A stretch of 64,000 nt of DNA from Squalus acanthias. Taxonomy: Eukaryota. Positions 1 to 51,759 of the stretch are shown here, piece after piece (the first letter of the stretch is position 1; every line of letters begins with the position of its first letter). The notes below the pieces were generated by a model. It worked only from the letters and a program-made list of their open reading frames with translations. It was not told where the DNA came from and did no database searches. The stretch is from assembly GCA_030390025.1 (NCBI GenBank), contig CM059431.1, forward strand, positions 122,700,001 to 122,764,000, in the 5' to 3' direction. The translations under genes and the position numbers were made by a program.

Positions 1-452
1 GCAAGCATCCAACAGCACTCCCTGCACACTTTAATAACTTTTCAAATGGCTTACACCAAGCCACTACTCAAATAAACTGGACAGGAACCAGTACAAAAGC
101 AAAAAGCAACTTACCTCAAAGTTGCATGTGTCACTTTAAATAGTGCTGGTGGGGTGTTCCGTCACGCATCTCAACACCCGTTCAGCTGTGAGTGTTTAGG
201 AGAGGGCATACAGTGGGGTGGTGACGTCCAAAATGGCAGGTTGTGTGGCAAATCAGTGTTACACACTGATTGATGTTACAATCTGCCTTTTTTGAATTCG
301 TCCATTGCACACAGGCAACGCTTGTGTTGTTGCCCTTCCCAAGATGACGACCAGTGCGGTCCGTGCCGGAAGTCGGTGGAACCGTGGCGAGCGCCATTTT
401 ATTCTTCAAACTGGCCATAACAGCCGGCGCTAAGCACGGGAATTTTGCGGCC
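1..452. mobile_element. Harbinger terminal fragment
   Basis: Shares TTTAAATAG.GCTGGTGGGG with 26730 and 52990; ends AATTTTGCGGCC. Confidence 0.65.
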
Positions 453-19474: not shown

Positions 19475-21350
19475 ATCTCATAAAAACTGACTGTAAAAGC
19501 TTCTACAGATATGTGAAGAGAAAAAGATTGGTGAAGTCAAACGTAGGTCCCTTGCAGTCAGAATCAGGGGAATTTATAATGGGGAACAAAGAAATGGCAG
19601 ACCAATTAAATGCATACTTTGGTTCTGTCTTCACAAAGGAAGACACAAATAACCTCCCAGAGATGTCGGGGAACATAGGGTCTAATGAGAGGGAGGAACT
19701 GAATGAAATCAGTATTTGTAGGGAAATGGTATTAGGGAAATTGAAGGGATTGAAGGCCGATAAATCCCCAGGGCCTGATAATCTACATCCTAGGGTACTT
19801 AAGGAAGTGGCCCTAGAAATAGTAGATGCATTGCTGGTCATCTTCCAAAACTCTATAGACTCTGGAACAGTTCCCATGGATTGGAGGGTAGCTAAAGTAA
19901 ACCCACTATTTAAAAAAGGTGGTAGAGAGAAAATGGGGAATTACAGACCGGTAAGCCTGACATCGGTAGTGGGGAAAATGCTAGAGTCCATTACAAAAGA
20001 TGTAATGGCAGAGCACTTGAAAAACAGTGACAGGATCGGACAAAGTCAACATGGATTTACAAAAGGTAAATCATGCTTGACTAATCTACTGGAATTTTTT
20101 GAGGATGTAACTGGTAGAATAGATAAGGGAGAACTAGTGGATGTGGTGTATTTGGACTTTCAGAAGGCTTTTGATAAGGTCCAGCATAAGAGATTAGCGT
20201 GCAAAGTTAAAGCACATGGGATTGGGGATAAGGTACTGACTTGGATAGAAAACTGGTTGGCAGACAGGAAGCAAAGAGTTGGAATAAACGGGTCTTTTTC
20301 CGAGTGGCAGGCAGTGACTAGTGGGGTACCGCAGGGATCGGTGCTAGGACCCCAGTTATTCACAATATATATAAATGATCTAGACGAGGGAACTAGATGT
20401 AATATCTGCAAGTTTGCAGACGACACAAAGCTGGGTGGGCATGTGTGCTGTGAGGAGGATGCAGAGAAACACCAGTTTGATTTGGACAGGTTGGGTGATT
20501 GGGCAGATGCATGGCAGATGCAGTATAATGTGGATAAATGCGAGGTTATCCACTTTGGTGGCAAAAACAGGAAGGCAGATTATTATCTGAACGCCAATAG
20601 ATTGGGAAAAGGGGAAGTGCAGCAAGACCTGGGTGTCCTTGTGCACCAGTCGCTGAAGGTAAGCATGCAGGTGCAGCAGGCGGTTAAGAAGGCAAATGGT
20701 ATGTTGGCCATCATAGCGAGAGGATTCGAGTACAGGAGCAACGATGTCTTGCTGCAGTTGTACAGGGCCTTGGTGAGACCACACCTTGAGTATTGTGTGC
20801 AGTTTTGGTCGCCTTATCTGAGGAAGGATGTTCTTGCCATGGAGGGAGTGCAGCAAAGATTCACCAGACTGATACCTGGGATGGCAGGAATGACGTATGA
20901 AGAGAGATTGGGTCGATTGGGCTTGTATTCGCTAGAGTTTAGAAGAATGAGAGGGGATCTCATTGAAACTTATAAAATTCTAACAGGACTAGACAGACTA
21001 GATGCAGGCAGGATGTTCCCGATGACGGGGGAGTCCAGAACCAGGGGTCATAGTCTAAAGATAAGGGGTAAACCATTTAGGACTGAGATGAGGAGGAATT
21101 TCTTCACCCAGAGAGTGGTGAACCTGTGGAATTCTCTACCACAGAAGAGAGTTGAGTCCAATTCATTAAATATATTCAAGAAGGAGTTAGATATATTTCT
21201 TAATGCTAAAGGAATCAAGGGATATGGGGAGAAAGCAGGGACAGGGTACTGAATTTGGATGATCAGCCATGATCGAATTGAATGGCGGAGCAGGCACGAG
21301 GGGCCGAATGGCCTACTCCTGCTCCTATCTTCTATGTTATGTTTCTATCA
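19475..21350 (+). mobile_element. CR1 LINE, 5'-truncated, with uninterrupted RT ORF to 21252
   Basis: ~590 aa open RT and C-terminal domain, no endonuclease; CR1 3' UTR and CTATG-type tail. Confidence 0.96.
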
Positions 21351-36079: not shown

Positions 36080-37695
36080 AATACCCAAGAAATAAAATTA
36101 ACGTAAGTAAAATAACAATAATGAAGAAAATAATGGCACTAAAGAGTGACAAACCCTCAGGACCAGATGATTTCCATCCCAGGGATTTAAAGGAAGTAGG
36201 TGAGCACATTGCAGATCCCCTAAATATGACCTTCCAAAGTTTTCTCAATTCAGGAACCGTTCCTTTAGATTGGAAAATTCCACATGTCACTCTGCTATTT
36301 AAGAATGGTGAGAGAGGGAAACTAAGGAATTATAGACCAGTTAGCCTTACATTTGTTGTCGGGAAATTACTAGAGTCTATAATTAAGGATAGAGTGACTG
36401 AAAACCTTGAAAATTTTCAGTTGATCAGAGAGAGCCAGCATGGATTTGTGAAAAACCTGATTGAATTTTTTGAAGAGGTGACTAAAGTAGTAGACAGGGG
36501 AAAGTCTATGGATTTTATTTATATGGATTTCCAGAAGTCATTTGATAAAGTCCTGCATAAGAGATTGTTAACTAAGGTTGAAGCCCATGGAATTGAAGGC
36601 AAATTATTGATCTGGTTAGAAAATTGGCTGGGCGGCAGGGGATAGAGAGTAGGGATAATGGGCAGGTACTCTAATTGGCAGGATGTGACCGTGGTGTCCC
36701 GCAGGGATCTGTGTTGGGGCCTCAACTATTCACAGTATTTATTAAGGACTTAGATGATGGCATAGAAAGCCACATATCTCAATTTGCCGATGACACAAAG
36801 ATAGGCAGCATTGTAGGCAGTGTAGATGAAAGCATAAAATTACAAATGGATATCGATAGATTAAGTGAATGGGCAAAACTGTGGAAAATGGATTCCAATG
36901 TAGGCAAATGTGAGGCCATCCAGTTTGGACCCAAAAAGGATAGAACAGTGTACTTTCTAAATGGTGAAAAGCTAAAAACAGTGGAGGTCCAAAGAGACTT
37001 GGGGGGTCCAGGTAAATAGATCATTAAAATCTCATGACAGGTACAGAAAATAATCAAAAAGTCTAATGGAATGCTAGCCTTTATATCTAGTGGACTAGAA
37101 TACAAGGAGGTAGAAGTTATGCTGCAGCTATACAAAACCCTGGTTAGACTACACCTGGAGTACTGTGAACAGTTCTGGCACCGCACCTTAGGAAGGATAT
37201 ATTGGCCTTAGACGGAGTGCAGCGTAGATTTACCAGAATAATACCTGGACTCCAAGGGTTAAATCACAAGGAGAGATTACACAAATTATTCCCTAGAATT
37301 TAGAAGGTTAAGGGGTGATCTGATCGAAGTTTTCAAGATATTAAAGGGAACAAATAGGGTAGATAGAGAGAAACAATTTCCGCTGGTTGGGGATTCTAGG
37401 ACTAGGGCGCATAGTCTAAAAATTAGAGTCAGACTTTTAAGAAGTGAAATTAGGAAACCGTTCTACACACAAAGGGTGGTAGAAGTTTGGAACTCTCTTC
37501 TGCAAATGGCCATTGATACTAGATTAATTGTTAATTTTAAATTTCAGATTGAAAGTTTTTTGTTAACCAAAGGTTTTAAAGGATATGGGCCAAAGGCAGG
37601 TATATGGAGTTAGGTTGCAGATCAGCCATGATCTCATTGAATGGTAGAACAGGCTAGAGGGGCTCAATGACCTCCTCCTGTTCCTATGTTCCTAA
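36080..37695 (+). mobile_element. CR1 LINE, degraded, nested in Harbinger
   Basis: RT motifs across frameshifts; tail TTCCTATGTTCCTA. Confidence 0.92.
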
Positions 37696-37990
37696 CTGGC
37701 AGCAGCCCTGACCTAGTAGAGGTGAAGAGTGATGAAGAAAAGGCACTGTCACTCGATCTGACACTCCCAGGCACGAGCTCAGAAAATGGCAGTGTGTGAA
37801 TTTTAGATGGTAGTATAGAGATGGGATATGCACGTGATGTGGCACTGGGCATGAGTTGGCTGTAGCCAGGCCAGGGGAAAGGGTAGCACGGGTGCCAGCT
37901 CCCAAGAGGCGAGTTCGCATGCAAGCTCTGCTGCACAGGACTCAGAGGATGACTTTGATGGGAGCCGTTCAGAAGAAGGGTGATGGCCAT

Positions 37991-39714
37991 TGTAAGGGAT
38001 TCCTGACCCTGCGTGTCTCGCAGCCTGTGAGATTCACGCGGCTCTGTGCAGCCTGTATGTCAGTGCGGGTCTAGGCCTGGTTGCCTGTTCTGGTCTCCAG
38101 CCAGTCTGGGAACACTAGACACACCTGTGAGTGGTTCGAATCACTCTCCCTTACGGTTCTAGACACTGGACTTAGATGCGAGAGCAGTAATGGAGATAAA
38201 ACTCATGTAGACTCGGTTTGAATGGTACGAAATGGAAAATCTTTATTGCATGATACTTAAAATTATGAAATACATGTCATAAGCACAGATTAATGACAGT
38301 ACAATCTTACAAACAGTTATATAGTCGATCTTAGGGAAACGAGGAACGAACGGCACAACGTAAATAGGGGCACACATTACAAATATCCTTAATCTTTAAA
38401 CCCTCCCCTATCAATATCTATCCTAAACTAGCTTCGTAGGATCTCGAGACTCATGCTCACCACTCGTGATAACTCGGAGAAATTCCGAATAGCTGATCGG
38501 ATGTTTTTCACCGCAGCACCCACGTGTCGGTCAGGAGATCTCCTGGTCCCACTTGTTTACTTGCTTCTGCTGCTTCGGCTAGTAGGCTGGACCGTCTGCT
38601 GTGATGAAGACCTGTGTTGGTTGGTTTAACAGGTACTCTTGGAGCACCGTTGTCAATATCATCGATACGATGTGTTTTCACGTTCCAACCTCCTTAGACA
38701 CAGTCCCGTTATCGTCGATGCAATATGTTTTGTTAGAAGTTTAAAGAAAACTTCCTGGCGAGAAACTTGGCTGATCGACCTACAGGCGCGGTCGGGATTT
38801 ACTGACCGTGGCGATGGATATGGTCTTCTTCTCTTCTCCTCTCATCTCATCTCATCTCATCTCATCTCGGGCCTTTGGTTCCGCTGCCAGTTACCAACAT
38901 AGGTCTTCGTTACGCGACATGAGGTAGATCCGAACGGATCAGAAAGTTCAACAGTCTTTTTCAGAAGAGGCAACAGGCAAGCAGAAGCCCAACTACGAGT
39001 ACACAGGAGCAGCCACGAGGTTACGAATCGACCGGATAAAACACAGGAGCAAGCGAGCGAACGCAGGAGCAAGAGCAAGAGAGAGAATGGACGGTTTGGA
39101 GCCTGCAATTATAGTGCAAAAATCTTCCATTTCCCGCCCAACTATAATGTCCATTCTTTTGTTTAGGGTTTGGCGCCCAAATGTCTTGTATGGGTGATCT
39201 CCGTTCTTAATGGGTTTCGGGGCTACTCATGAATGTTTGAGTACCCGTTAATATTTCTCCCATTGTTAAATCGGTCGGTGTTCTCCCTGGAGGGGTTTGG
39301 GGCTTCCAAGTGTCCTGTATAACTACCTGCTAACGGCTCTCTCATCGTAGAGTCGTTGGGAGTTTACATATTAATGTCCTTTGGATGGGCCCTTGAGTAC
39401 TCGGTACAATGGCTTTCCTTTGTACCTGGGAGACCGATTCCAGTATCTATGTTTATACTGCAAACCCATAATGTCTCGTGTATTATCTTCACTGTGCTGA
39501 ATCGTTATCGATCTTGCACAAATGTTTAATGGAACGCCATCTTGTCTGCCTGTTGAAAAGTCTAGAATGTTCTGTCACGAGGTGCGGCGGCCATTTTACA
39601 GGCTGCTTGTGTCCAATTTAAACCTGCCAGCATTCTGCTGAAATAAAAGCTGTTTGAACGAAACTTTGTGTTTTCTCCTTATTAATCAAATCGCGATATA
39701 TTGCGAATTCTACA
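37991..39714 (-). repeat. 3' LTR (1724 bp)
   Basis: Matches the 5' LTR except at 38920/50006 and 39092/50178 (by eye); preceded on the minus strand by a purine-rich tract. Confidence 0.97.
38242..38247 (-). promoter_or_regulatory. Candidate polyadenylation signal in the 3' LTR (5' LTR copy at 49328-49333)
   Basis: AATAAA on the minus strand, ~250 nt before the LTR end. Confidence 0.6.
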
Positions 39715-39726
39715 GTCCCTCCTGTT
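39715..39726 (-). promoter_or_regulatory. Polypurine tract
   Basis: AACAGGAGGGAC directly abutting the TGTA start of the 3' LTR. Confidence 0.7.
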
Positions 39727-40138
39727 GATGCGAATAACTCCGCTTATCGTATCAAAAATCACAGTGGTGAGCAATCTTATCTCGATTTCACTCCGAATCC
39801 AGTAAATTAATCCCATAATTTTTAACTTAACTAGGGTCTCTGTGTCGTCCTTATTTCCCAAGAAAATCACATTTTATATCACCGTAGGCATCATTTGCCC
39901 TTAAACTTACACCACTTGTTTTCCTTCCCGGCGTAACCAGGCCGATACCTCACGCATCACCTGTATATTTGTCTTTTATTCAGGGAAAGGAAAAAACAAA
40001 ACCCAAAACCAAACAATCAACACCATCACCAAAATAATCAAACCCCAACTCTTAAAACATGTCGAGTTTCCAACGTATTTACAATGAGTACAAACTTCCG
40101 CGGCGCACGCGGCGAGCGGGAGTGACGCCATTTTCCGA

Positions 40139-42490
40139 TTACACGGTGCTCTCATCGTGCACGCGCACGTAACGTTCTCGCCACTCTCCCGTGTTTTCAT
40201 GCTTGGTGAGGCGCTTGTCTCTTTTACAATGTATGACCAATAGGTACACTACAATAAACACTTGACAGACGACTAAAATGTGGGAGGCTATTCTGATCCA
40301 TGAAGGCACTTCAATATTCGTGAACAGATTCCACCACGGTGGAACCACTATGTCCAGAATGTCTGTTCCTATTTCGACAGTTTTCTGCTCTAATGTATAA
40401 AAATGTTTCTGTGATACCGCGACGGCTTTCAGAAGTTTGGTTAAATGCTCAGGGAGAGGGGGAATGAGGTATCCAAAATGCGCGACAAATCGCTGCAAGT
40501 CGGTGAAATTCTCTTTTACTGTGAGATGAACAGTGGATGGTTCAGGGATTGGGATAATTCGCTGTTGTGCTACTTGAACTTCAGCCCTGGGTTTAAAACA
40601 GAAACTGCTGTCACTCACCGGACACCGGCTACGGTTTCCATGCTGGTAGTGTTGCGCTGCAGTGGTAACACAATATGTTCCACCCCCGATGTATGCTACC
40701 TGCGGAGGCACATGATCTTGTGCCATTGCCTCCATGGTGCAATTCATGGACTTGGCGCCAGCCGTTCTGAACCCGCACTGTGGTGTTAAAAAGGCATTCA
40801 AGTGCTGGGGGCACAGTATTATGTGTGCTCCCCTGCCACGACAACCAGAGAGATCTGTACCTGTCATCGTTTGCTCCCAGCGGATGACGTAAGGTGGAAC
40901 TGCTGCATAACGAATGTGGGCTCCCCCCTGAATGACACCAATGTTCTCTACCCGATACACCGGGGCGGGCTTTGCTGTGTTGCCCAAAACCGGCATGCGT
41001 AATACTATTCCCATAATAGTATGGTTTGAACGTCCGCAGTCCACGGGGACTGGGTAAGCTTCTGAAGCTAGCCTGAGCTGGCACGGACTTAATGCGTTCT
41101 GAAAAGGGTGGAGCGCCCGCAGGTGTTTGTTACTTATCCAGGACGGAACCAAACCTTGTTTTAAATCCTCCAAATTACTGCGGCCCTCGCCCAGTAACCA
41201 CGCCCCGTAAAGCACGCACACCTCGTTCTGCGCAGCTTGATCGGATGCATTCCGATCTTCCCTGATCAGGGCATTTACCGTACGCGCATGTTTCTCCAGC
41301 TCTGCTATAATTTCCTTTAAATGGAGAGTCATGGCTTGGTCCTCGTGTAGACCTGACCCTACCACTTTATTCTCATCTGTTAGAATGTCTTTTAACTGTG
41401 TTTTTAAACCATTAATCTGGGTCTGCAGCTCCACACTGTCTAGAGCGTTGACCACAGATGTCCCTGTGTTAAAAGCAGTGAACGCATCGTTCACCAAACC
41501 CCTTCTTTGCCTCCCTACTTGATCCAAAACTTCCTGCGGTGCGGTGTACAAACTTGTCTTATCAATTTCTGCAAAATCAAACTCGTAAAATTGTCTGAAC
41601 ATCTTGGTCAACAGGACCTGATACAACTGTTCCGTCTTTTTGGGGCACCACTCTGGTAACCGCACCTCAGTGAGATTTAAAATCACCGAGGCCACCGCGT
41701 AATGTACCCCCTGAAATAGTATCTGGTCTGTGGGGACCAGTACCAAACCGTTCCCGGGTCCCTTACTAGTTTTAGGGCACCCTTCTTCCTCAGCTAGAAC
41801 CACCGGAATCGTGGGCGGGGCTTTGCGTGGGCGCGTAATGAGCTCAGTGGCATTTACTGGGATCGGGGAGAATGGGGCTCCGCACCCCCTGGTGCTCGCA
41901 TCCCACCTCATCCCCTGTCCGTTATCCTGCCATTGATTAATAAAAAATATGGAGATGCCTTTGGGGCAAACGTACTTTGACCCCCACATACATACATAAA
42001 TCCCCTCATCCGGTTCCCACCATTTGTCCCAACAGACTTTCACTTGTCCGTCTGTCCCCGTAATTGTCCGATGGGTATTATTACCCAGTCGTTCCCACTC
42101 GACCGAAGAGTTTCTCATAGTTTTGCTCAGCTTTCGCAGCCACCACCATCGGCTCAATGGGACATTCCCACTACAGGTCAAACAAATCCGTTTGCCGACG
42201 GTGACGCTGATCCTGGGTGCGATGATCCTTACTTTGGGGCACATTAAAGAAGTCTCTTTGTAGGCAAACCCCGATGTGCTGGAATACTCCGTTGAGTTCG
42301 TTCCCAGCCATCCTGGCCACCTTCCCTTGTGGAAATAGGTGCTGGTCCCCTCTGCCTTCCGTCTTCCGGTCCCATCCACCGCGATGGGGGCCGTGTCCCC
42401 GGAACATCCAAACACCACGACATCCTTGGTGTGGCCTCGATAGGCCAATCCACATCCGATTGCCACGAGCAATACTAGAATTCGTTCCAT
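40139..42490 (-). CDS. env: Env, class I fusion glycoprotein (783 aa from the signal-peptide Met)
   Basis: Signal peptide MERILVLLVAIGCGLA with strong Kozak context (AGGATGG); furin site RQRR (41501-41512); fusion-peptide-like segment and heptad repeat; Cys-rich region; several NxS/T sequons; transmembrane helix ~40227-40290; short tail. Confidence 0.92.
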   Translation of the reverse strand: MERILVLLVAIGCGLAYRGHTKDVVVFGCSGDTAPIAVDGTGRRKAEGTSTYFHKGRWPGWLGTNSTEYSSTSGFAYKETSLMCPKVRIIAPRISVTVGKRICLTCSGNVPLSRWWWLRKLSKTMRNSSVEWERLGNNTHRTITGTDGQVKVCWDKWWEPDEGIYVCMWGSKYVCPKGISIFFINQWQDNGQGMRWDASTRGCGAPFSPIPVNATELITRPRKAPPTIPVVLAEEEGCPKTSKGPGNGLVLVPTDQILFQGVHYAVASVILNLTEVRLPEWCPKKTEQLYQVLLTKMFRQFYEFDFAEIDKTSLYTAPQEVLDQVGRQRRGLVNDAFTAFNTGTSVVNALDSVELQTQINGLKTQLKDILTDENKVVGSGLHEDQAMTLHLKEIIAELEKHARTVNALIREDRNASDQAAQNEVCVLYGAWLLGEGRSNLEDLKQGLVPSWISNKHLRALHPFQNALSPCQLRLASEAYPVPVDCGRSNHTIMGIVLRMPVLGNTAKPAPVYRVENIGVIQGGAHIRYAAVPPYVIRWEQTMTGTDLSGCRGRGAHIILCPQHLNAFLTPQCGFRTAGAKSMNCTMEAMAQDHVPPQVAYIGGGTYCVTTAAQHYQHGNRSRCPVSDSSFCFKPRAEVQVAQQRIIPIPEPSTVHLTVKENFTDLQRFVAHFGYLIPPLPEHLTKLLKAVAVSQKHFYTLEQKTVEIGTDILDIVVPPWWNLFTNIEVPSWIRIASHILVVCQVFIVVYLLVIHCKRDKRLTKHENTGEWRERYVRVHDESTV

Positions 42491-42775
42491 CCTTCCTTGG
42501 TTCCTGTGATCAGATAGAATGAGGTAGCCAGCCTCGCAAAAGTCTCTGGCTTTTGTGAAGGGTGAGCGGGTCCCCTGACCTCGCCTCACGTAAACTTCAA
42601 CGTTCGCTGCATAGACTTCCTCTAAACCTAGCCTTAAAACTCCCATCATTTTATCGTTTTCTGTTAAAAACACTACAAACTTAGCCTTATTAAAACTTAA
42701 AACTTAACCTTGACACTACAAACTTAAACTTAACCTAATAACTTTACAGTGCCGCCCGTTCTCAGGGCGGCCCCT

Positions 42776-45700
42776 TTAAACTCTGAGAAGGCTGCTGCGA
42801 GCTCTTCCCGACGGTGGGAGGGCACTGACCCTTCCCTCTGATCTGCCGCAGCCTGTTACTGCTGCGATGTGGCCTGTCTGTACCCGGGTTATCTTAACCT
42901 GAAGTCTACGCCTTGGGGCAGTCTGGGGACATGACCACATCCTCCTGGGCTGGGGTTCTCTACTTGACCTACGGGGAGTTGCTATGGGCGGGGGTTCCGT
43001 GACGGACGGACCGGGTTCCGAGACCTCCAACGGGATGACCTGGGGTTCCATCACAGTCGCCGGCTCCGCCTCCGCTGACTCCGCCTCCCTAACCTCGGGG
43101 CTGGCAGTTCGTGGCTCCGCCCTGCTCGGCCCAGCAGGCGGCCCTTCACTCGTGATCTCTGCCTCCCCTGAGGACTGGACGTTCAAAGCGGGCGGCCACA
43201 TCTCTGGGAGCCACATTGGTACTCTCTGTGCTCCTATAGCGGCTGGCCCTGCCTCCTCTAGCTCCTCTCTCCTGTCCTCGGGACCTGCAGCTTGTGTGTC
43301 CACCCTGTGTGGATCTCTACCTATAGGCCCCATTCCCCCCAGACCGTTCCTCAGGAACCACCCGTCATCATCACTATGCTCATCTGCACTATCCTCATCT
43401 GACCAGGGTACCCTGGGTTCTTCCTCATCTAACCCCCAACTCCAGAAAAACGCTGCATGATCGTCCGGGATGTCCCTTCCCCTGATGCAAGCTGCTATGC
43501 CTGCCTGTGTGCCTTGTGGTCCTACCTGGGGCTGTGCTTTCCCATTGGCGGGATTTGCCCCTGTAGTTTTCCCCTGCGCACCCGGCTGGTACAGTTTGCA
43601 TTGATTTATGTGGAACCACTTAGTGCGCCGAGGTACTTTTACGGCGTAAACCATGGGACTCGCCTTGTCTACAATGTTGTAGGGTCCCATATACAGTGGT
43701 TCCAGACTCCCTACTCTGGCGTAGTTTCTGACCATGACCTGGTCTCCTACTTCCCACTCCCGCGTTTTGCGGGGTTCCAGCAACAAGCGATTGCCCTGAT
43801 GCTGCCTTCCCATGTTCCCAGCCGCCTGCTCATAAACTTGCTTCAGGCGCTCCAAGAGAGTCTGGGCGAACTTGTCCCTGCTTATCTCTTGGAGCTGACC
43901 CTCAGTGAGCACCGGGGCTAGCACATGGGTGGGGGTTCGCATGAGCCTGCCGGTCATTACCTCGTGCGGGGAGTACCCCGTACTTTTTGACTGACTGGCC
44001 CGGACCCCCATGAGGACTAAAGGCAGAACTTCCGCCCATTTTTGGGGCGAGTTCCTAGTCTCTTTCCTCAATTTCTCCTTCAGGGTCCGGTTCATACGTT
44101 CAACAATCCCGGATGACTGGGGATTGTGTGCTACGTGCCACTTCCCTTCAATGCCCAAAAGCATGAGGGTGTTCTGCATCACCTGGCCGGTGAAATGACT
44201 CCCTTGGTCTGACTCCACGAAACGGGGGAGTCCCCACCGCGAGAACACTTCCCGGACCAAGATTTTTGCTGTACCCAGTGCCGTAGCTGTTCGACAAGGG
44301 AAGGCTTCCACCCACTTGGAAAACACATCCACCAGGACGAGGCAGTACTTATAACCTCCCTGGGTGGTGGGCAGGGGTCCTATATAGTCGATCTGTATCG
44401 ACTGCCATGGTCCCTCTACCCTTCTTACGTGTCCCATGGGCACCTTCCTTTTCTGGGGGTCTGGGTTGTTTGCAGCGCACACAAGACAGTTTGCACAGAA
44501 CTCGCGGACTTGTTCCCTGAGCCCTGGCCACCATCCCGCTTGCTCTACCCGTTGCCAGGTAACCTCGGGCCCGGGGTGCCCTGCCCCTGGTCCCTCGTGA
44601 GCCAACTGGAGGAATTCCCTCCTGTGCTGCTGCGGCACAACCCACTGCTCCCCGCGGAACAGCATGCCTTCCTTAACTGAGAGGGTTGCCGTACTGTACG
44701 GACCCTCTACCTGCCTCCCCTCAGCAATCGTTTTTAGGACTGCTTTTAGGGCGGGATCCTGGGCTTGGACGGTCTTAAGGTCTAGGGGCAATGCTACCCT
44801 GGTGTTCCCGGTATTCCCGTCCCCGCCTCGGACCGCTGCTATGGGTCCGGTCCTATAGGGGTTCCAGAAAGTGCCGTCGCGGGCACCCTCCCTGGCTAGC
44901 GCATCCGCCTGCCGGTTGCCCTCCCCACGGGGCTCTGTGGAGGAGTGAGCTTTCACCTTATGGATGAAAATCTCTCCTTCCTCCCCTACTGCTGCTGCTA
45001 AGATCTTTTCCAGCAAGGGCTTCACCGTTAAAGGTCGCCCGTCCGCGGAGGTGTATCCGCGGCGGGACCAAATGGCCAGGTATTCCGTACACGAATTGCA
45101 GGTGAACATACTGTCCGAGCAAATCGTGTATGGGGTTGGGAAAATGTCTGGGTGGGTCACCACGTACACCACGGCAGACAGCTCAGCCTGCTGCGCACTC
45201 ATGGTGCTAGGGAGCTTGATCGCCAGGGCAAGGTCTGCCGCAGGGTCATAAACTCCACACCCTGTGAGTCGCTCGCCAGCAGACACTGTGCTAGACCCAT
45301 CAACATAAATCTCGCGCCCAGTGGGATGTATCCCGGCCCGTAAACCTATGTTGACGTCCCACACCCCTTCCACTGAACACCGGTGGGCTGTACCGGGGTA
45401 TACCAAATTGGCCGCAAGCCTGGGCTCGCAAAGACCTTTTACTCTAAGATCCAACTGGGAGAGAAGAAGGGTCCAACGCGCAATGCGTGCGCTGCTTACG
45501 GTCCCGTCTTTAATCCTCCCATCCAGAAGCATCTTAGTTGGTGTGTGATGTGTGAGGAGAGTGATGGGAGAGAGCCCTGTGAAGATCGCTGATCTTTTCA
45601 CAGCCCAATGCGTGGCTAAAAGGTGCCTTTCGCAATTGGAGAAACTTCTCTCCACATCCGTTAATACCCTGGATGAATAGACAACCGGCCTCAGCTTGCC

Positions 45701-47260
45701 GTGACGCTCTTGGAGCAGCACGGCGCTTAAGCTGTCTCCGCTGGCAGCTACCTCCAGGAAAAACTCCTTCCCCCCATCTATGGCCCCTAAGGCTGGCGCG
45801 GTCTGCAGATCCCTTTTTAACTTCTCGAAGGCTGCTTGGCAGCCCTCGTCCCAAAGCCACTCCACCCCCTTATGGAGGAGTCGGAGGAGCGGCGCCGCTG
45901 TGGCCGCATAATCTTCGATAAAATCCCTGCAGTAACCGGTCAGTCCCAAGAAGGACCTCACACCCCTTACGTTGTTGGGAATCGGTAATTCTTGCACCGA
46001 CTCCCTCCTTGCTTTGTCTATGGCTCTTTCCCCAGCGCGTAGGGTCAGTCCCAGGAATTTTACTTCCTGCTGACCGATACGTGCTTTCTTAGGGTTTACT
46101 TTAAAACCCTTTCTCGCTAACAGCTCCAATAACTCGTCCAGTAGTGGTCCGTGCTCCTCCCTTGAGTCCGTAAATAGGAGCAAATCATCCACATACTGTA
46201 CTATCTGATTGGGCTGACTAAACTCCTTTAAACTTCCTGCCATACACTGATGAAAAATACTGGGGCTATTGTGGAAACCCTGTGGCAAACAGTTCCACGT
46301 GTACTGTTGCCCTTTGAACGTAAAGGCAAACTTGTACTGGTCCTCTCGCCGCAGCGGGATGGACCAAAAACCGTTCGAGATATCCAGCACCGTGAACGTG
46401 GTCGCGGACGCTGGGATGCTCCCTATTAGGTCAGCAACTGCTGCTACTGTGGGCGCGCAGGCGGGAATGTTACTGTTAAGGACTCTGTAGTCCACCGTGG
46501 CTCTCCACGAATTATCCGGCTTCCTAACCGGCCATAATGGGGAGTTCACGTGTGTGGCTATCGGCCTCAACACGCCCTGCTGCACCAAGGAAGACATTGC
46601 TGTCTCCATATCGGGTTCTGCTTCTTTGGGGAAGTTATACTGCTTTTGGGGTCGGGTCATGGGGTCCCCATCTACGCTGACCTCAAACCCGACCACTCTC
46701 CCACAATCGTGCTTGTGGGTTGCAAACGCGTGCATATTATCTGACACGTACGTTTGCATGTCCGTTGGGACATCTGCGACCATAAGCCTGAGGTCGTAGC
46801 CTCCAGATGGCTGTACGGTACACAGGACCCCTGTTTCTTCCTCCCCCGGAATCACCATTACCTCGCCTTTTTCACCTTTAGCCCCCCAGAGACAGTGATT
46901 TCTGAGGTCCACGAGGATCCCGTGTCCCGCTAGGAGATCGGACCCGAGAATACCTCTTCCACCCCCCTTTTGCCATGCCATCAATATGCACTTCCACTTA
47001 AGGCGAAGTGTTCCTAAACGAATGGATAGCGGAAGGGAAAACGTGCCAGCCTGTTCTTTTCCTGTGAACCCTGCCAACGTGAATGGGACCTTGGTAGATA
47101 GCGGCGAGTCAAAAGGGTTATCTGTATGGATTATGGTGCAAGAAGCTCCCGTGTCCAACAAATAACTGCCCTTCTGTTTCTCTACCTCCATCTCCACCAC
47201 AGGTCGCCTCCACGCATCATAGCTGAGCGGACACAGGTAGACGGGCTGTGCTGGTTCTAG
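42776..47260 (-). CDS. pol: Pol: protease - RT - degenerate RNase H (tether) - RNase H - integrase - C-terminal extension
   Basis: LLDTGAS (~47150); LPQGFHNSP and YVDD (46184-46195); tether EVAAS...VVYSSRVL; RNase H YVDGS/AQQAEL/SDS/KVKAHS/NRQAD; HHCC zinc finger; IDYIGP, SDQG, VERMNRTLK; GPY. Confidence 0.97.
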   Translation of the reverse strand, partial: LEPAQPVYLCPLSYDAWRRPVVEMEVEKQKGSYLLDTGASCTIIHTDNPFDSPLSTKVPFTLAGFTGKEQAGTFSLPLSIRLGTLRLKWKCILMAWQKGGGRGILGSDLLAGHGILVDLRNHCLWGAKGEKGEVMVIPGEEETGVLCTVQPSGGYDLRLMVADVPTDMQTYVSDNMHAFATHKHDCGRVVGFEVSVDGDPMTRPQKQYNFPKEAEPDMETAMSSLVQQGVLRPIATHVNSPLWPVRKPDNSWRATVDYRVLNSNIPACAPTVAAVADLIGSIPASATTFTVLDISNGFWSIPLRREDQYKFAFTFKGQQYTWNCLPQGFHNSPSIFHQCMAGSLKEFSQPNQIVQYVDDLLLFTDSREEHGPLLDELLELLARKGFKVNPKKARIGQQEVKFLGLTLRAGERAIDKARRESVQELPIPNNVRGVRSFLGLTGYCRDFIEDYAATAAPLLRLLHKGVEWLWDEGCQAAFEKLKRDLQTAPALGAIDGGKEFFLEVAASGDSLSAVLLQERHGKLRPVVYSSRVLTDVERSFSNCERHLLATHWAVKRSAIFTGLSPITLLTHHTPTKMLLDGRIKDGTVSSARIARWTLLLSQLDLRVKGLCEPRLAANLVYPGTAHRCSVEGVWDVNIGLRAGIHPTGREIYVDGSSTVSAGERLTGCGVYDPAADLALAIKLPSTMSAQQAELSAVVYVVTHPDIFPTPYTICSDSMFTCNSCTEYLAIWSRRGYTSADGRPLTVKPLLEKILAAAVGEEGEIFIHKVKAHSSTEPRGEGNRQADALAREGARDGTFWNPYRTGPIAAVRGGDGNTGNTRVALPLDLKTVQAQDPALKAVLKTIAEGRQVEGPYSTATLSVKEGMLFRGEQWVVPQQHRREFLQLAHEGPGAGHPGPEVTWQRVEQAGWWPGLREQVREFCANCLVCAANNPDPQKRKVPMGHVRRVEGPWQSIQIDYIGPLPTTQGGYKYCLVLVDVFSKWVEAFPCRTATALGTAKILVREVFSRWGLPRFVESDQGSHFTGQVMQNTLMLLGIEGKWHVAHNPQSSGIVERMNRTLKEKLRKETRNSPQKWAEVLPLVLMGVRASQSKSTGYSPHEVMTGRLMRTPTHVLAPVLTEGQLQEISRDKFAQTLLERLKQVYEQAAGNMGRQHQGNRLLLEPRKTREWEVGDQVMVRNYARVGSLEPLYMGPYNIVDKASPMVYAVKVPRRTKWFHINQCKLYQPGAQGKTTGANPANGKAQPQVGPQGTQAGIAACIRGRDIPDDHAAFFWSWGLDEEEPRVPWSDEDSADEHSDDDGWFLRNGLGGMGPIGRDPHRVDTQAAGPEDRREELEEAGPAAIGAQRVPMWLPEMWPPALNVQSSGEAEITSEGPPAGPSRAEPRTASPEVREAESAEAEPATVMEPQVIPLEVSEPGPSVTEPPPIATPRRSSREPQPRRMWSCPQTAPRRRLQVKITRVQTGHIAAVTGCGRSEGRVSALPPSGRARSSLLRV

Positions 47261-49072
47261 TCATGGGGCACTATTAGACGGTCCTGCGGCACCTACGGGG
47301 CCGGTTGCGACCGCCACCTGTCCACGCGCATTCAAAACCAGCTTGCGCATGGCTCCTAACACTGCTTCGAGGTCGTCGGGAGGGGTGGGTGCCTTGGCTT
47401 CCTTAGCCGGGACAGGCGCCTGGGCTCGGACCGCGGGATTTTTATCCTTGGAATCCTTCCAAGGGTTCCTGCAGTGCTTGCGCCAGTGCCCTGTCTTCCC
47501 ACACCCGTAACAAGCATTACTGGCTTGTGGGACGCGATTTCCCTCCTGATGCCACTCCTTTTGAGCCGGGGCTGCGGGTCGTACCTCATGTACTCTTCCC
47601 TTAAAGGGACGTGTCGTCATACCCCTTATATTACGATAACCTAACGTGAGTCGATTCAAGACCGACTCTTCCGTAAGGTTGAGGTCATTGGGATCGAACC
47701 AGGCTTTTGCCCGCTCTCTAACGGCTGGTAAACTGTTGGCTATTATGCACCTAAGCCAATGAGTTAGAGCGGCGCCTTCCACATCTTCGCGCTCGGGCGC
47801 ACCTAGACAGCTGCGCTCATATACTGGCCACAGCCTGTCGGCAAAAACCTTCGGGGGTTCTCCCTCCATCTGCACTGTCTGTCCCACTCTAGCAAACGGA
47901 CCTCCGTCGTTCGCCCCCAACACTTCTAGGACCTCATTTTTTAATTCCTCATAACTTTTGTTTCCCCTCTTGCTCTCGCCTGAGAGACACTGAAGGACCG
48001 AGCTGTCTAATGAGAACAGCAGCATTTTTGCTGTCTCCCCATCATCGCAGCCGTTAATGGCTGCGGCTTGCTCAACTTCCCTGAAATGTACGGAAGGGTC
48101 GTCTATCTCGGTCAGCTTCCGTACGTGATTTATCATAGCTCTCAGCTGATGTGAACTGTGAGGCAACACCAGCTGTCCGAGGAGATCCCCCGGTTCTTCC
48201 CCACCGTTTCTGCTTGGGCCCCTTTTAATACCCGTTACTGGATACAACGATCCCTTTTCTGCTTCCTTTTCAATGGGCCTTTTCGTTTCTTCCATTGCTT
48301 CCTCCCTAACCCAGGTTTCTGAATAGCTGGGTGGCGCGGAGGGCGCAGTGGCTACTACTTCTTCTGCTTTACTTGGTGGGGATTTTCTAAATCTCTCATT
48401 TACTAGCGGCTGGTGCGCCGACGGATTGATAAGGCACACCATGCCGTTCGCATTGTTCACGGCCTTTTTGAGGCTCTCTATCTCCCTTTGGCAGGCGCTA
48501 TGGTCGGCTCCCTGAAACTTATCCTCAAGGGCCAACTTATACGCCGACCTAACCCCCATTAAGCTCTCTTCTTGAGTTCTTATCTGGGCAGCTTGGCGGT
48601 TACATCTTTCCTTTAACCTGCTCTCATTCAATTTTGCCTCAGTGACCTGGCACTCGAGATAATCTATCCTTGTCTTAAGGTGACTGGAGACTTCCTGGCT
48701 TTCCTGGTGTAACTCATTTAAATTCTTAATGAGCACCTCCCCTCCAGAAACCTTCTCCTCCATTTCTCCCTCTAAATGACTGATTCGAGCTGTTAGCGCT
48801 GTAATGGTCTGGTTTGAAATCTGAACCTGCCTTTTGTAGCACATAAGCCAGACTGCTTTCTCAACTGTCTTTTTATGTTCCTTACTATCTGTCCACCTTT
48901 CAGCTGCCTCTAGTGGGCTCTTATCCGCTAACAATTCACTTATCCACTTCTTAGTTAGATTAACCTTTCCAAACACATAATCCGCTATCTTTTCCTGCAT
49001 AACATTTCGTACAGTCATTCCAAAATCTAACACACTACCCTCTCGCTGCCAGTGTCCTGCCGCGGTCGCCAT
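47261..49072 (-). CDS. gag: Gag (603 aa from the first ATG): coiled-coil N-terminal half, late-domain motifs, capsid-like region, one CCHC zinc knuckle
   Basis: Open ORF; CYGCGKTGHWRKHC at 47471-47512; PSAPPSY at 48323-48343; position between PBS and pol. The ORF-track start at 49123 is a GTG inside the LTR. Confidence 0.92.
   Translation of the reverse strand: MATAAGHWQREGSVLDFGMTVRNVMQEKIADYVFGKVNLTKKWISELLADKSPLEAAERWTDSKEHKKTVEKAVWLMCYKRQVQISNQTITALTARISHLEGEMEEKVSGGEVLIKNLNELHQESQEVSSHLKTRIDYLECQVTEAKLNESRLKERCNRQAAQIRTQEESLMGVRSAYKLALEDKFQGADHSACQREIESLKKAVNNANGMVCLINPSAHQPLVNERFRKSPPSKAEEVVATAPSAPPSYSETWVREEAMEETKRPIEKEAEKGSLYPVTGIKRGPSRNGGEEPGDLLGQLVLPHSSHQLRAMINHVRKLTEIDDPSVHFREVEQAAAINGCDDGETAKMLLFSLDSSVLQCLSGESKRGNKSYEELKNEVLEVLGANDGGPFARVGQTVQMEGEPPKVFADRLWPVYERSCLGAPEREDVEGAALTHWLRCIIANSLPAVRERAKAWFDPNDLNLTEESVLNRLTLGYRNIRGMTTRPFKGRVHEVRPAAPAQKEWHQEGNRVPQASNACYGCGKTGHWRKHCRNPWKDSKDKNPAVRAQAPVPAKEAKAPTPPDDLEAVLGAMRKLVLNARGQVAVATGPVGAAGPSNSAP
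49054..49071 (-). promoter_or_regulatory. Primer-binding site, tRNA-Arg(UCG)
   Basis: Minus strand TGGCGACCGCGGCAGGAC, 5 nt after the 5' LTR; complementary to the 3' end (GUCCUGCCGCGGUCGCCA) of vertebrate tRNA-Arg-TCG as I recall that sequence. Confidence 0.88.
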
Positions 49073-49076
49073 TTTC

Positions 49077-50800
49077 TGTAAGGGATTCCTGACCCTGCGT
49101 GTCTCGCAGCCTGTGAGATTCACGCGGCTCTGTGCAGCCTGTATGTCAGTGCGGGTCTAGGCCTGGTTGCCTGTTCTGGTCTCCAGCCAGTCTGGGAACA
49201 CTAGACACACCTGTGAGTGGTTCGAATCACTCTCCCTTACGGTTCTAGACACTGGACTTAGATGCGAGAGCAGTAATGGAGATAAAACTCATGTAGACTC
49301 GGTTTGAATGGTACGAAATGGAAAATCTTTATTGCATGATACTTAAAATTATGAAATACATGTCATAAGCACAGATTAATGACAGTACAATCTTACAAAC
49401 AGTTATATAGTCGATCTTAGGGAAACGAGGAACGAACGGCACAACGTAAATAGGGGCACACATTACAAATATCCTTAATCTTTAAACCCTCCCCTATCAA
49501 TATCTATCCTAAACTAGCTTCGTAGGATCTCGAGACTCATGCTCACCACTCGTGATAACTCGGAGAAATTCCGAATAGCTGATCGGATGTTTTTCACCGC
49601 AGCACCCACGTGTCGGTCAGGAGATCTCCTGGTCCCACTTGTTTACTTGCTTCTGCTGCTTCGGCTAGTAGGCTGGACCGTCTGCTGTGATGAAGACCTG
49701 TGTTGGTTGGTTTAACAGGTACTCTTGGAGCACCGTTGTCAATATCATCGATACGATGTGTTTTCACGTTCCAACCTCCTTAGACACAGTCCCGTTATCG
49801 TCGATGCAATATGTTTTGTTAGAAGTTTAAAGAAAACTTCCTGGCGAGAAACTTGGCTGATCGACCTACAGGCGCGGTCGGGATTTACTGACCGTGGCGA
49901 TGGATATGGTCTTCTTCTCTTCTCCTCTCATCTCATCTCATCTCATCTCATCTCGGGCCTTTGGTTCCGCTGCCAGTTACCAACATAGGTCTTCGTTACG
50001 CGACACGAGGTAGATCCGAACGGATCAGAAAGTTCAACAGTCTTTTTCAGAAGAGGCAACAGGCAAGCAGAAGCCCAACTACGAGTACACAGGAGCAGCC
50101 ACGAGGTTACGAATCGACCGGATAAAACACAGGAGCAAGCGAGCGAACGCAGGAGCAAGAGCAAGAGAGAGAATGGATGGTTTGGAGCCTGCAATTATAG
50201 TGCAAAAATCTTCCATTTCCCGCCCAACTATAATGTCCATTCTTTTGTTTAGGGTTTGGCGCCCAAATGTCTTGTATGGGTGATCTCCGTTCTTAATGGG
50301 TTTCGGGGCTACTCATGAATGTTTGAGTACCCGTTAATATTTCTCCCATTGTTAAATCGGTCGGTGTTCTCCCTGGAGGGGTTTGGGGCTTCCAAGTGTC
50401 CTGTATAACTACCTGCTAACGGCTCTCTCATCGTAGAGTCGTTGGGAGTTTACATATTAATGTCCTTTGGATGGGCCCTTGAGTACTCGGTACAATGGCT
50501 TTCCTTTGTACCTGGGAGACCGATTCCAGTATCTATGTTTATACTGCAAACCCATAATGTCTCGTGTATTATCTTCACTGTGCTGAATCGTTATCGATCT
50601 TGCACAAATGTTTAATGGAACGCCATCTTGTCTGCCTGTTGAAAAGTCTAGAATGTTCTGTCACGAGGTGCGGCGGCCATTTTACAGGCTGCTTGTGTCC
50701 AATTTAAACCTGCCAGCATTCTGCTGAAATAAAAGCTGTTTGAACGAAACTTTGTGTTTTCTCCTTATTAATCAAATCGCGATATATTGCGAATTCTACA
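49077..50800 (-). repeat. 5' LTR (1724 bp)
   Basis: Direct repeat of 37991-39714 at offset 11086; followed on the minus strand by the PBS. Confidence 0.97.
50194..50265 (-). promoter_or_regulatory. Candidate LTR core promoter (GC box plus TATA-like element)
   Basis: Minus strand GGGCGCCAAA...GGGCGGGAA...CTATAATT followed by a pyrimidine-rich, initiator-like tract. Confidence 0.45.
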
Positions 50801-51759
50801 CCATACACACAGAAATGCTTGGTGCAATGGCAGGCCTGCCAGAGAGCCTCTTGTCAGTGTCAAGGAGCATGGAGGAGTCCAGCTCCAACATTGTATGGGG
50901 CTTTGTGTGGAGCTTGGAGCCCCTAATTTCCAGGATGGAAGTGATTGACAACTCCATTAGAACACTTGTGGACCCAACCCTGATGCAGGGTCTGATGGCC
51001 AATGTCTCAGCTTCCATTGCAGCATAAGCAGAAGCAACCCAGCGTCTGAGTGCTGCACTGGAAGCTCAGGTTGCTCTCATGCAGTCTCAGCTTGCTGCCA
51101 CGCAAGCTCAGACTGATGCCATCATGGCTGGGCTTATGCGTATGGAAAGGGGCTTGCAGGGTCTCACAGCAGTCCAGCAATATGTGCACTAACAGATGGC
51201 TAGGAATGCTGAGGCACTGCCCCAGGGGAGTGGCAGTGGGTCCGACAGCATTCGTACTCCCTGTCACTCTGCCAGTGCCCTTGCTCCTGCCTGTCAGCCA
51301 GCCAGCCCAGACAGCTGCCACCCATGCCGAGGTGGTGCAGTCTATAGCCGGGCCTTCTACGCCCAGAGTTGCTCGAGGTCGTCCTGCAAGACCATCTGCA
51401 GTCTCGCCCATGGAAACTCAGCAGTCTTCCACAAGCCATGCTGCAGCCACTGGGGTAGCACTGCGTAGGAGCATTAGATTAGGCAAAGAAACATGAAAGA
51501 CAGACAATTAAGGGAATGCACAAAGGTGGTTTGTTGACTTTGTTATTGCCTTGCTTCATTGATAAATTGTGTTTGGAAAGTTTGCTTTGTGTTGGCTCTC
51601 ATTTCAACTTTGTGCCCAAGAGGATGCTGTGATATTCCGTGACAGAGGGACGGTAAGGTGGGGAAGTGTTGAGCAACAGGGATCTGGGGTTTTCATTCAG
51701 GGGTACTGGATACTAATGAAGTGCTCACGGACAGCCCATCCAGAACGAGGATTTGCTGC

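Follow-up and report, generated by a model that had tools for sequence, protein, structure and literature searches.

In an intact provirus of Squalus acanthias, gag ends at a UGA codon beyond which pol continues in the same frame, and we consider it probable (roughly 0.7) that this codon is an inherited gag terminus past which pol is translated by readthrough at a level of a few per cent, likely aided by the CUA(G) that follows and by a predicted RNA stem. The TGA lies at 47263–47261 on the minus strand of the window, by which we mean the whole 64,000-nucleotide stretch of DNA that was analyzed. Most ribosomes would stop at the TGA and release Gag, whereas in a few per cent a near-cognate tRNA would insert an amino acid and translation would continue to yield Gag-Pol. 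Occasional readthrough would thereby fix a high Gag:Pol ratio, and the leaky CUA(G) context and a predicted stem of 220 bases would likely promote it. Retroviral readthrough has so far been understood from one model, the UAG and pseudoknot of murine leukaemia virus. If our reading is correct, the junction described here represents a third layout in the Retroviridae, convergent with that of alphaviruses and of human UGA-CUAG genes.

The provirus and its gag-pol junction

The provirus that carries the junction (50800–37991, minus strand) is bounded by LTRs of the form TG...CA (5′ LTR, 49077–50800, 1724 bp; 3′ LTR, 37991–39714) that differ at 2 of 1724 bases and are flanked by a 4-bp target-site duplication, ATGG. 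It belongs to a retrovirus family that is young and present in many copies in this genome. Within the 5′ LTR are an AATAAA near 49336 and the env splice donor (G/GTGAGC, 49541–49547), and just downstream is a primer-binding site (49054–49071) that is complementary to the 3′ end of tRNA-Arg(UCG), matches tRNA-Arg(TCG) genes of the same genome and overlaps the first ATG of gag. The gag gene (47264–49072; 603 codons from the ATG at 49072) gave no match in a Pfam search; a single zinc knuckle, CX2CX4HX4C, was read from the sequence at 47471–47512, and a coiled coil at the Gag N-terminus was judged by eye only. The pro-pol frame (42776–47260; 1494 codons) encodes protease, reverse transcriptase (RT), tether, RNase H, integrase and a long C-terminal tail. 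An env-like open reading frame (40139–42490; 783 codons) begins with an ATG 13 nt past a splice acceptor at 42504. It has relatives among skate and sawshark gene models, had no Pfam match and was assigned by Atlas to one unnamed cluster (0.84); its single-sequence fold (pLDDT 34) was unusable. The sole accessory-type frame listed, in a scan that took in the 3′ LTR and the 5′ LTR only to 49500, was one of 74 codons at 39976–40200. A purine-rich stretch read from the sequence at 39715–39726, likely the polypurine tract, precedes the 3′ LTR.

Gag ends CCA TGA CTA GAA CCA, and past the TGA the frame is open for 1494 codons, to a TAA at 42776. The reading in the initial annotation of a gag TGA followed by CTAG (47257–47263) with pol in frame was thus borne out, on the minus strand. 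That annotation had also counted 20 open codons into pol; the openness stands, but 20 codons end at a GTG at 47200, and the first ATG is codon 24 (47191). Its Gag-Pol of 2098 amino acids is arithmetically right (603 + 1 + 1494, from the ATG at 49072) but is an upper figure only, because the primer-binding site overlaps that ATG and it is a methionine 24 codons further on that sister family B has in common. Of the 169 TGA triplets on the sense strand of the provirus, only that of the gag stop lies in TGACTAG, as do 3 of 2398 in the window on both strands, and the presence of this heptamer at the gag stop exceeds chance.

To follow the stop among relatives we compared top-scoring matches only, comprising 115 distinct loci of the same family (family A), 85 of them found by protein queries located 3′ of the stop, and loci from six sister families. 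Within family A the site reads TGA-CTA in 114 copies and TAA-CTA in one. A sense codon in sister copies, which the initial annotation had regarded as telling against readthrough, was found in none of the 115. The base before the stop is A in all 115 copies, and the fourth context base varies, 13 copies having CTAA instead of CTAG. The invariant CTA is weak evidence by itself, because 61% of four-fold pol codons are likewise invariant. An in-frame TGA stands at the matching place in family B (20/20 loci), C (18/20, with a sense codon in one copy), D (20/20), D2 (10/10) and E/F (4/4), 28–33 codons upstream of the protease motif; pooled over seven families it is present at 186 of 189 loci. Since TGA is kept in 114 of 115 family-A copies and in six further families, the stop is inherited and is not damage. 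The context is less constant. Family B has TGACTAG in 18 of 20 copies and D has TGACGGG in 17 of 20, and the TGA is followed by AGAG in family C, CGGG in D and AAGG in E/F, with CTGG also present among the sister families. Hence, where conservation of TGACTAG had been proposed as a check, TGA proved to be kept but CUAG was not universal, with TGA-AGA, TGA-CGG and TGA-CTG also occurring. In snakehead retrovirus (SnRV) and in three metagenome loci the corresponding codon is TAG; metagenome loci L130–L132 ended before the protease, and L133 and L134 (24–26% identity) were excluded from the count.

Protein-level selection and a predicted stem after the stop

Selection on the protein is evident immediately past the stop. 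The pN/pS ratio is 0.12 for codons +1 to +23 and 0.14 for the protease, as compared with 0.58 for the tail of gag and 0.05 for RT. Residues 16–48 past the stop align to residues 5–37 of HIV-1 protease, placing the ATG at 47191 at residue 13. Families B, C, D and D2 lack this ATG and indeed have no methionine between the stop and the protease active site. Judged from these ratios and alignments, the 23 codons that lead from the stop to the first ATG (47192–47260) are the N-terminus of the protease and are under purifying selection, and therefore Pol cannot simply start at the ATG at 47191. No dip in synonymous variation was found over codons +1 to +20 (rank 500 of 978 windows).

The roughly 220 bases past the stop likely form one long stem, which is predicted to start 4 to 9 bases after the stop. 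The 234 nt past the stop fold at a z score of −5.14, none of 200 shuffles being as good, and the junction fold is the lowest of 75 windows over gag-pol-env, two others of which fold nearly as well (z −5.38 and −4.85, from 15 shuffles each). Among alignment segments, the one at the stop ranks first of 31 (z −10.7), or first of 13 when each family is represented by a single copy (z −7.5), and the junction segment of families D and D2 ranks first of 14 (z −3.6). With the U of the stop as +1, the predicted basal helices have their 5′ arms at +6 to +20 and +27 to +32 (47232–47258) and their 3′ arms at +198 to +203 and +213 to +226 (47038–47066). The predicted helices +16..20/+213..217 and +27..32/+198..203 are common to families A, B and C, which are 59–64% identical there, and core pairs from +13 (a 9-nt spacer) can form in all 115 family-A copies. 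The support from pairing comes mostly from invariant positions or one-sided changes within protein-coding sequence: two-sided covariation was found at 2 of 16 named pairs, a number matched in 92 of 500 shuffles. The folding programs we used are blind to pseudoknots. Shorter folds were rejected as drawn from too short a segment and not conserved: one of 154 nt (z −2.96) and those of 90 nt, which gave z of −1.5 to +0.8 in family A and were equaled by 7–16 of 17 control windows.

The predicted long stem displaces the hairpin GCACAG/CTGTGT of the initial annotation. That hairpin is present 9 nt past the stop, but by itself it contributes only −4.8 kcal/mol, its pair probability in context is 0.000, and its GCACAG arm is altered in many sister copies. 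Of the proposed cis-signals for opal readthrough, therefore, the 6-bp hairpin gives way to a predicted extended stem of 220 nt, and CUAG becomes one of several contexts in the lineage.

Probable readthrough and rival routes to Pol

Comparison lends good support to the proposal of the initial annotation that Gag-Pol arises by programmed opal readthrough: the stop is kept, the protease N-terminus looks translated yet has no start codon, and the runs that showed an env splice showed none for pol. From the sequence comparisons, readthrough itself, its level and its stimulation by the stem are each likely. A similar gag-UGA-pol junction, that of Tca2, gave no readthrough in a reporter (PMC2194720), and UGA-CUA without structure gives about 1–2% (PMC3159437, PMC13517186). 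Readthrough here could accordingly come from the stop and the next few bases alone, with the long stem serving in shielding from nonsense-mediated decay, packaging or export, a possibility that we regard as unlikely. Its span of about 220 nt exceeds that of alphavirus stems, with loops of 101–154 nt (PMC3159437). The lowest part of the stem, moreover, differs between subfamilies, the pair +12/+220 forming in 54 of 115 copies. Rous sarcoma virus has an RNA stability element after its gag stop. Against such a separate role, every group has its own predicted stem some 4–18 nt from the stop, even where the context is poor (TGA-AGA, TGA-AAG, TAG-GG), and a predicted 7-bp helix 8 nt past the stop recurs, with compensatory swaps, in five distant elements.

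Alternatively, the stop could be an ordinary terminator, with Pol either made from its own message, by splicing of the foamy virus type or from a promoter near the junction, or started at the ATG at 47191. A splice donor is indeed present in the 5′ leader, CTAG ends in AG, there is a pyrimidine-rich CAG at 47223, and the Tca2 junction harbours a weak promoter (PMC2194720). We nevertheless consider this very unlikely. No joint with splice-type ends onto the start of pol was found in the sequencing runs (X10, X11, X16 and X17, the RNA status of which is a guess), all joints near the junction lacking such ends; sensitivity was low, since the env joint itself (42502/49546, with CT..AC ends and a 21-nt side) appeared in only one of the four. 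Of the 115 copies, 13 lack the AG of CTAG, other subfamilies and family B lack the CAG at 47223, and no TATA-like box was found in the 500 nt upstream. The ATG at 47191, as described above, lies inside the protease and is not shared. Nor would a separate message hold gag and pol in one frame across seven families. Because the runs are only guessed to be RNA, contig depth says nothing on expression.

Recoding of the UGA, by A-to-I editing beside the double-stranded rod or by insertion of selenocysteine, has in its favor that a long double-stranded predicted stem adjoins the stop and that, of three folding contexts, one places the A of UGA in a base pair. ADAR, however, disfavours an A preceded by G, editing would be copied back as proviruses with a sense codon, of which family A has none, related elements have TAG at the same site, and an Rfam scan of 37900–50900 at E ≤ 1 gave no SECIS (five weak matches, all to other families); we think it slightly less credible still than a separate message. 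Least credible of all, and improbable in the extreme, is that the stop arose as a disabling mutation, the copies being spread in trans by an unseen helper with a fused gag-pol. In a coelacanth gene model, P0005, gag and pol are indeed fused, a sense codon occupying the corresponding site, and the sense codon in 1 of 20 family-C copies, in a sample of top-scoring matches, points the same way. But each of the 32 sequences that matched this fused protein holds exactly one TGA, TGA is nearly uniform across the seven families, the low pN/pS of RT reflects strong purifying selection on pol, and the infectious relative SnRV likewise has a stop there. Inheritance of the stop and readthrough into pol thus remains our preferred reading.

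Relation to known readthrough systems

The junction most resembles that between nsP3 and nsP4 of alphaviruses, a type II signal in the scheme of Beier and Grimm, in which UGA-CUA (Sindbis) or UGA-CGG (VEEV) is in each case followed by an extended 3′ stem-loop (PMC3159437). CTA and CGG are the contexts of the two type II hexamers (PMC3159437, PMC13517186), and here UGA is followed by CUA in families A and B or CGG in D, with the polymerase downstream and a predicted basal stem of 11–13 bp with a one-base bulge and a distant 3′ arm. By sequence the elements have the features of a type II cassette: UGA-CUA/CGG, an in-frame, start-less ORF conserved as protein, and a conserved extended stem of the kind that begins some 8–12 nt past the stop, here predicted only. 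The alphavirus signal differs in serving a replicase, enclosing 101–154 nt and stimulating 3- to 14-fold (PMC3159437), whereas here the signal is at gag-pol, about 190 nt are enclosed and the stem is predicted only. AQP4, OPRK1, MAPK10 and MDH1 share the UGA-CUAG heptamer, but there it leads to short C-terminal extensions of host proteins rather than a 1494-codon enzyme polyprotein. Murine leukaemia virus likewise suppresses a stop to set Gag:Gag-Pol with a stimulator that encodes the protease N-terminus; it has UAG-G, an 8-nt spacer and a compact 50-nt pseudoknot, and the contrast drawn initially with gammaretroviruses holds, UGA-C and not UAG followed by G being present here. Foamy viruses use a separate spliced pol mRNA with its own ATG; no ATG is conserved before the protease here.

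UGA at gag-pol is already listed for three fish and amphibian retroviruses (PMC13517186). SSSV (UGAAGA, the hexamer of family C), zebrafish ZFERV (UGACGA) and cane-toad RMEV (UGAAGU) have opal gag-pol junctions in frame; they are epsilon-related, none has UGACUA, and the available text of PMC13517186 describes neither a downstream structure nor experimental verification. A 2026 review regards the readthrough signals of fish retroviruses as unverified and their cis-elements as unclear. We found no paper in the literature that describes a gag-pol junction of a retrovirus with UGA-CUA(G), subscription papers and Repbase reports lying outside the search. Five published lokiretrovirus consensus sequences do have gag-TGA-CTA(G/A) in frame with pol, on which the accessible part of their publication does not comment.

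Among named viruses SnRV has the closest RT core (44.6% identity, against 37% for simian foamy virus and 36% for gammaretroviruses). A quick RT-core tree of 26 rows, none of them ERV-L or Loki, had an 11-row group including SnRV at 97% SH-aLRT; in a longer quick tree with gypsy rows SnRV fell outside the window element's group. The SnRV sequence used (locus L096, 10,688 nt) has an RT start identical to the published one. Lokiretroviruses have an RT lineage that is sister to all other retroviruses and an Env resembling the F protein of paramyxoviruses. A lokiretrovirus identity, suggested by "NYNRIN-like" match names, was dropped on the SnRV match and on RT motifs, LPQGF in the window element and SnRV versus TPFGY in Loki-Aro (by eye, published alignment). 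SnRV likewise has gag and pol in one frame, parted by a stop at the corresponding position, together with a single zinc knuckle and a long Pol tail, and it reportedly has a tRNA-Arg primer-binding site, as here. It differs in having UAG-GGC (type III-like) and a short predicted 7-bp helix, +12..18/+70..76, where the window element has UGA-CUAG and the 220-nt rod; the signal therefore changes within the lineage. Gag is barely alignable, and the env ATG past the acceptor and the 1724-bp LTR also set the window element apart. SnRV-like Gag is characterized by a single zinc finger and a coiled coil at its N-terminus, and amber suppression has been presumed for SnRV (PMC2717909). SnRV also has accessory ORFs and a complex splicing pattern; for the window element the analysis showed the 74-codon frame and the one env splice. 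SnRV-related ERVs of cartilaginous fish are already known as elephant-shark CmiERV lineage I (PMC4422223) and clade Huo (PMC6001957); the dated CmiERV insertion is old (3.3% LTR divergence; PMC4422223), whereas the window family is young and abundant.

We give even odds to the proposal that a type II cassette was reached at gag-pol at least twice, both by the SnRV-like elements of cartilaginous fish and by the lokiretroviruses of teleosts, with stops and contexts exchangeable within the SnRV-like group (UAG-G, UAG-C, UGA-A, UGA-CGG, UGA-CUG and UGA-CUA) and the 3′ stem always rebuilt. If so, these elements would form a natural series for what a stimulator needs, and an undescribed stimulator is predicted for SnRV. 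Seven families in one genome, with varied stops and contexts and a predicted stem in each, make the trade-off between context and structure testable in simple reporters. Finally, we note a consequence for annotation: gene callers split such elements and start Pol at a methionine inside the protease.

The gag stop codon and its context

The gag-pol feature lies on the minus strand of the window. Its gag frame (603 codons, ATG at 49072) ends CCA TGA CTA GAA CCA, the TGA being read from the sequence at 47263-47261, and continues in frame for 1494 codons through protease, RT, tether, RNase H and integrase domains, bearing out the initial annotation on this point; an env-like open reading frame follows 3′ of pol on the same strand. 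The provirus belongs to a large family, A, with at least 150 matches to a 127-residue query, all of those listed being 100% identical. From four match sets (30 of 40, 30 of 150 and 30 of 150 matches, plus 25 of 30 loci after two duplicates were removed and three assigned to other families) we assembled 115 distinct family A loci, including subfamilies with 81-88% identity to the window copy. The stop context was TGACTAG in 101, TGACTAA in 13 and TAACTAG in one, and the preceding base was A in 115/115. A sense codon in sister copies, named beforehand as counter-evidence, occurred in 0/115. Given that 61% of four-fold codons in pol likewise do not vary among the nine family A clusters, the weight for the context rests on other families.

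Six such families in the same genome retain TGA in the gag-pol frame, 28-33 codons ahead of the protease motif. Family B (Pol identity 67%) has TGACTAG in 18/20 loci, family C (62%) TGAAGAG in 16/20, TGAAGGG in two, TAA in one and a sense codon in one, and family D (48%) TGACGGG in 17/20, each from 20 of 40 matches; family D2 has TGACTGG in 10/10 (10 of 12 matches), and families E and F (35-37%) TGAAAGG in 4/4. Over all families the junction is TGA at 186/189 loci. TAG takes its place in snakehead retrovirus (SnRV; TAG-GGC) and in the metagenome loci L127 (TAG-GGA) and L128/L129 (TAG-CGC). Because a stop is kept in all families, in SnRV and in the metagenome loci, the in-frame stop is, on sequence comparison, a trait of the lineage. 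Within this genome the stop is nearly always TGA, with CUAG limited to families A and B; the expected conservation of TGACTAG held for the stop and only in part for what follows it. Both textbook type II (alphavirus-class) hexamers, UGA-CUA and UGA-CGG, occur among the families, and TGACTAG is rare by chance (1/169 TGA triplets within the provirus).

Predicted structures 3′ of the stop

The 6-bp hairpin GCACAG/CTGTGT, proposed earlier as the stimulator, had a pair probability of 0.000 in context and was rejected; a larger stem is predicted instead. Short folding windows after the stop yielded no conserved structure. In windows of 230-250 nt the sequence is predicted to form a single rod from +6 to +226 (stop U as +1) of -95.4 kcal/mol (z -5.14, 0/200 shuffles as stable), the lowest among 75 windows spanning gag-pol-env, with two others close. 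Those two 230-nt folds in pol, at 46574-46803 (z -4.85) and 45539-45768 (z -5.38; 15 shuffles each), are almost as stable; the former is weakly conserved over families and the latter lies mostly past the end of the conservation scan.

Families A, B and C have predicted common helices in the same register (+16..20/+213..217 and +27..32/+198..203), which extend downward with a one-base bulge displaced between A and B/C, both arms changing. Pairs +13/+219 to +20/+213 are possible in 114-115 of 115 family A copies, and the second helix in all copies aligned there except one; the lowest rungs are variable (+12/+220 in 54 copies). Across 17 copies 92% of cells pair, as against 32-43% for slid partners, with two-sided change in just 2/16 pairs. 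The alignment window at the stop, where families are 59-64% identical, ranked first of 31 (z -10.7; next -3.35) and, with one copy per family, first of 13. Synonymous variation within family A showed no dip.

Families D and D2 have their own predicted stem (z -3.6, first of 14). E, F, SnRV, L127 and L129, elements ~35-40% identical to the window's Pol, share a predicted 7-bp helix beginning 8 nt 3′ of the stop, its partner ~55-60 nt further on (L096:2191-2270, the SnRV record; L127, L129, L136, L138); it pairs in 5/5, with compensatory swaps at two positions, and is a candidate readthrough stimulator of SnRV itself.

Probable readthrough of the stop

The 23 codons preceding the first ATG of pol evolve, by their substitution pattern, as protease does (pN/pS 0.12, with 0.14 for protease and 0.58 for the gag tail; four subfamily copies). 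Residues 16-48 past the stop align to HIV-1 protease 5-37, which puts the first Met at protease position 13, and families B, C, D and D2 have no Met before the protease active site. For splicing we searched four runs guessed to be RNA, from organisms that carry near-identical elements and are not provably the host of this provirus. One contig carried a joint between a donor at 49547 and an acceptor lying 13 nt ahead of the env ATG, both of canonical sequence, in 1/4 runs with a short side of 21 nt; in this weak test no splice-type joint appeared at the pol start in the four runs. A search for a SECIS element found none.

We favor readthrough of the gag UGA, at a probability of about 0.88. Full-length RNA would be translated from the gag start, most ribosomes terminating at the UGA and a few per cent inserting an amino acid through a near-cognate tRNA to give Gag-Pol; CUA(G) and a stem at the ribosome entry channel would favor the event. 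That a stem stimulates it is likely, if less so than readthrough itself. Sindbis and VEEV cassettes give ~7% readthrough, and 3-14-fold less without the stem (Firth et al., PMC3159437); a level in that range is our guess by analogy. The gag-UGA-pol junction of Tca2, which gave no readthrough in the reporter described in the available part of PMC2194720, is a caution. The feature is real, and the initial annotation's reading of it as programmed opal readthrough is probably correct; the stimulator predicted here differs from the small hairpin it named and is larger.

We regard the junction as a new version of a known mechanism, programmed readthrough. The accessible portion of a 2026 review (PMC13517186) lists the retroviral contexts UAGGGA, UAGGGC (SnRV), UGAAGA (SSSV), UGACGA (ZFERV) and UGAAGU, gives UGACUA for alphaviruses and one dicistrovirus alone, and calls epsilonretroviral readthrough unverified and its cis-elements unclear. 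In-frame suppression has been presumed for SnRV and Ovex1 (PMC2717909), and UGA-CUAG readthrough is established in human genes (10.64898/2026.07.14.738498). In the openly accessible literature we found neither UGA-CUA(G) nor an extended stem described at the gag-pol junction of a retrovirus. By eye, five teleost lokiretrovirus consensuses in the PMC7947760 supplement, Ofa, Cne, Pyo and Sau (CTAG) and Bsp (CTAA), have gag-TGA-CTA in frame with pol; ten other elements are annotated there as fused gag-pol, and the main text, as far as accessible, mentions no readthrough, frameshift or stop codons.

Affiliation and layout of the provirus

The best named Pol matches are frog and coelacanth gene models (45-46%). 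In the SnRV record (IMG/VR, 10,688 nt) the RT begins exactly as in published SnRV, and the length agrees with that reported for the virus (PMC12193657). RT-core identity of the window is 44.6% to SnRV, 37% to simian foamy virus and 36% to gammaretroviral matches, and a quick RT tree unites the window, B, C, D, SnRV and the frog and coelacanth rows (97%), with E, L127 and L129 outside. The provirus thus appears SnRV-like, although SnRV fell outside the window's group in a longer quick tree with its root among gypsy rows. Lokiretrovirus identity was ruled out on an RT motif judged by eye. SnRV-like elements are already known from cartilaginous fish (PMC4422223, PMC6001957, PMC4977317, PMC10435555).

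The LTRs (50800-49077 and 39714-37991, minus strand, 1724 bp each) differ at 2 positions and are flanked by a 4-bp target duplication, ATGG; the insertion would be ~2.6 million years old at the elephant-shark rate assumed by Han (PMC4422223) and a tenth of that at a mammalian rate. The very long 5′ LTR (49077-50800) holds the env splice donor, a TATA-like box near 50199 and AATAAA near 49336, which suggests that R spans ~850 nt and that the leader, longer than 1 kb, has many ATGs upstream of gag. The primer-binding site fits tRNA-Arg(TCG) genes of the same genome and overlaps the first gag ATG (49054-49072); among copies (the window's, L211-L213 and L220) either of two tRNA-Arg-type sites is present, frame kept. 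Long tandem arrays of a 1623-bp unit with tRNA-Arg(TCG) and tRNA-Ser(GCT) genes occupy G000 C26:39.0-42.2 Mb, and a 21-base tRNA pattern has 427 exact matches across the genome.

Copy pairs ~11.0-11.1 kb apart (G000 C6:53079654/53090779, C1:103331049/103342166, C3:90695461/90706543, C10:89092343/89103378) are spaced by one internal region plus one LTR and are therefore likely tandem proviruses with a common LTR. Among runs X1-X20, those of six coded organisms contain at least half of the junction words sampled, which places near-identical copies in several species or labels, as recent shared ancestry or cross-species spread would give.

Past integrase, Pol has ~290 low-complexity, proline- and acid-rich residues (42779-43650), a tail whose length differs among copies (open frames of 1494-1533 codons). 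In Env (40139-42490) an RQRR motif resembling a cleavage site precedes a hydrophobic stretch and helices; a Pfam search gave no match, and the three relatives found are gene models from skate and sawshark, pointing to a cartilaginous fish as host. Around the provirus lie repeated fragments resembling LINEs and SINEs (12591-14933, 19450-21332, 36064-37691 and scattered others), among them a 600-codon frame at 19450-21252 that is probably a LINE reverse-transcriptase remnant.
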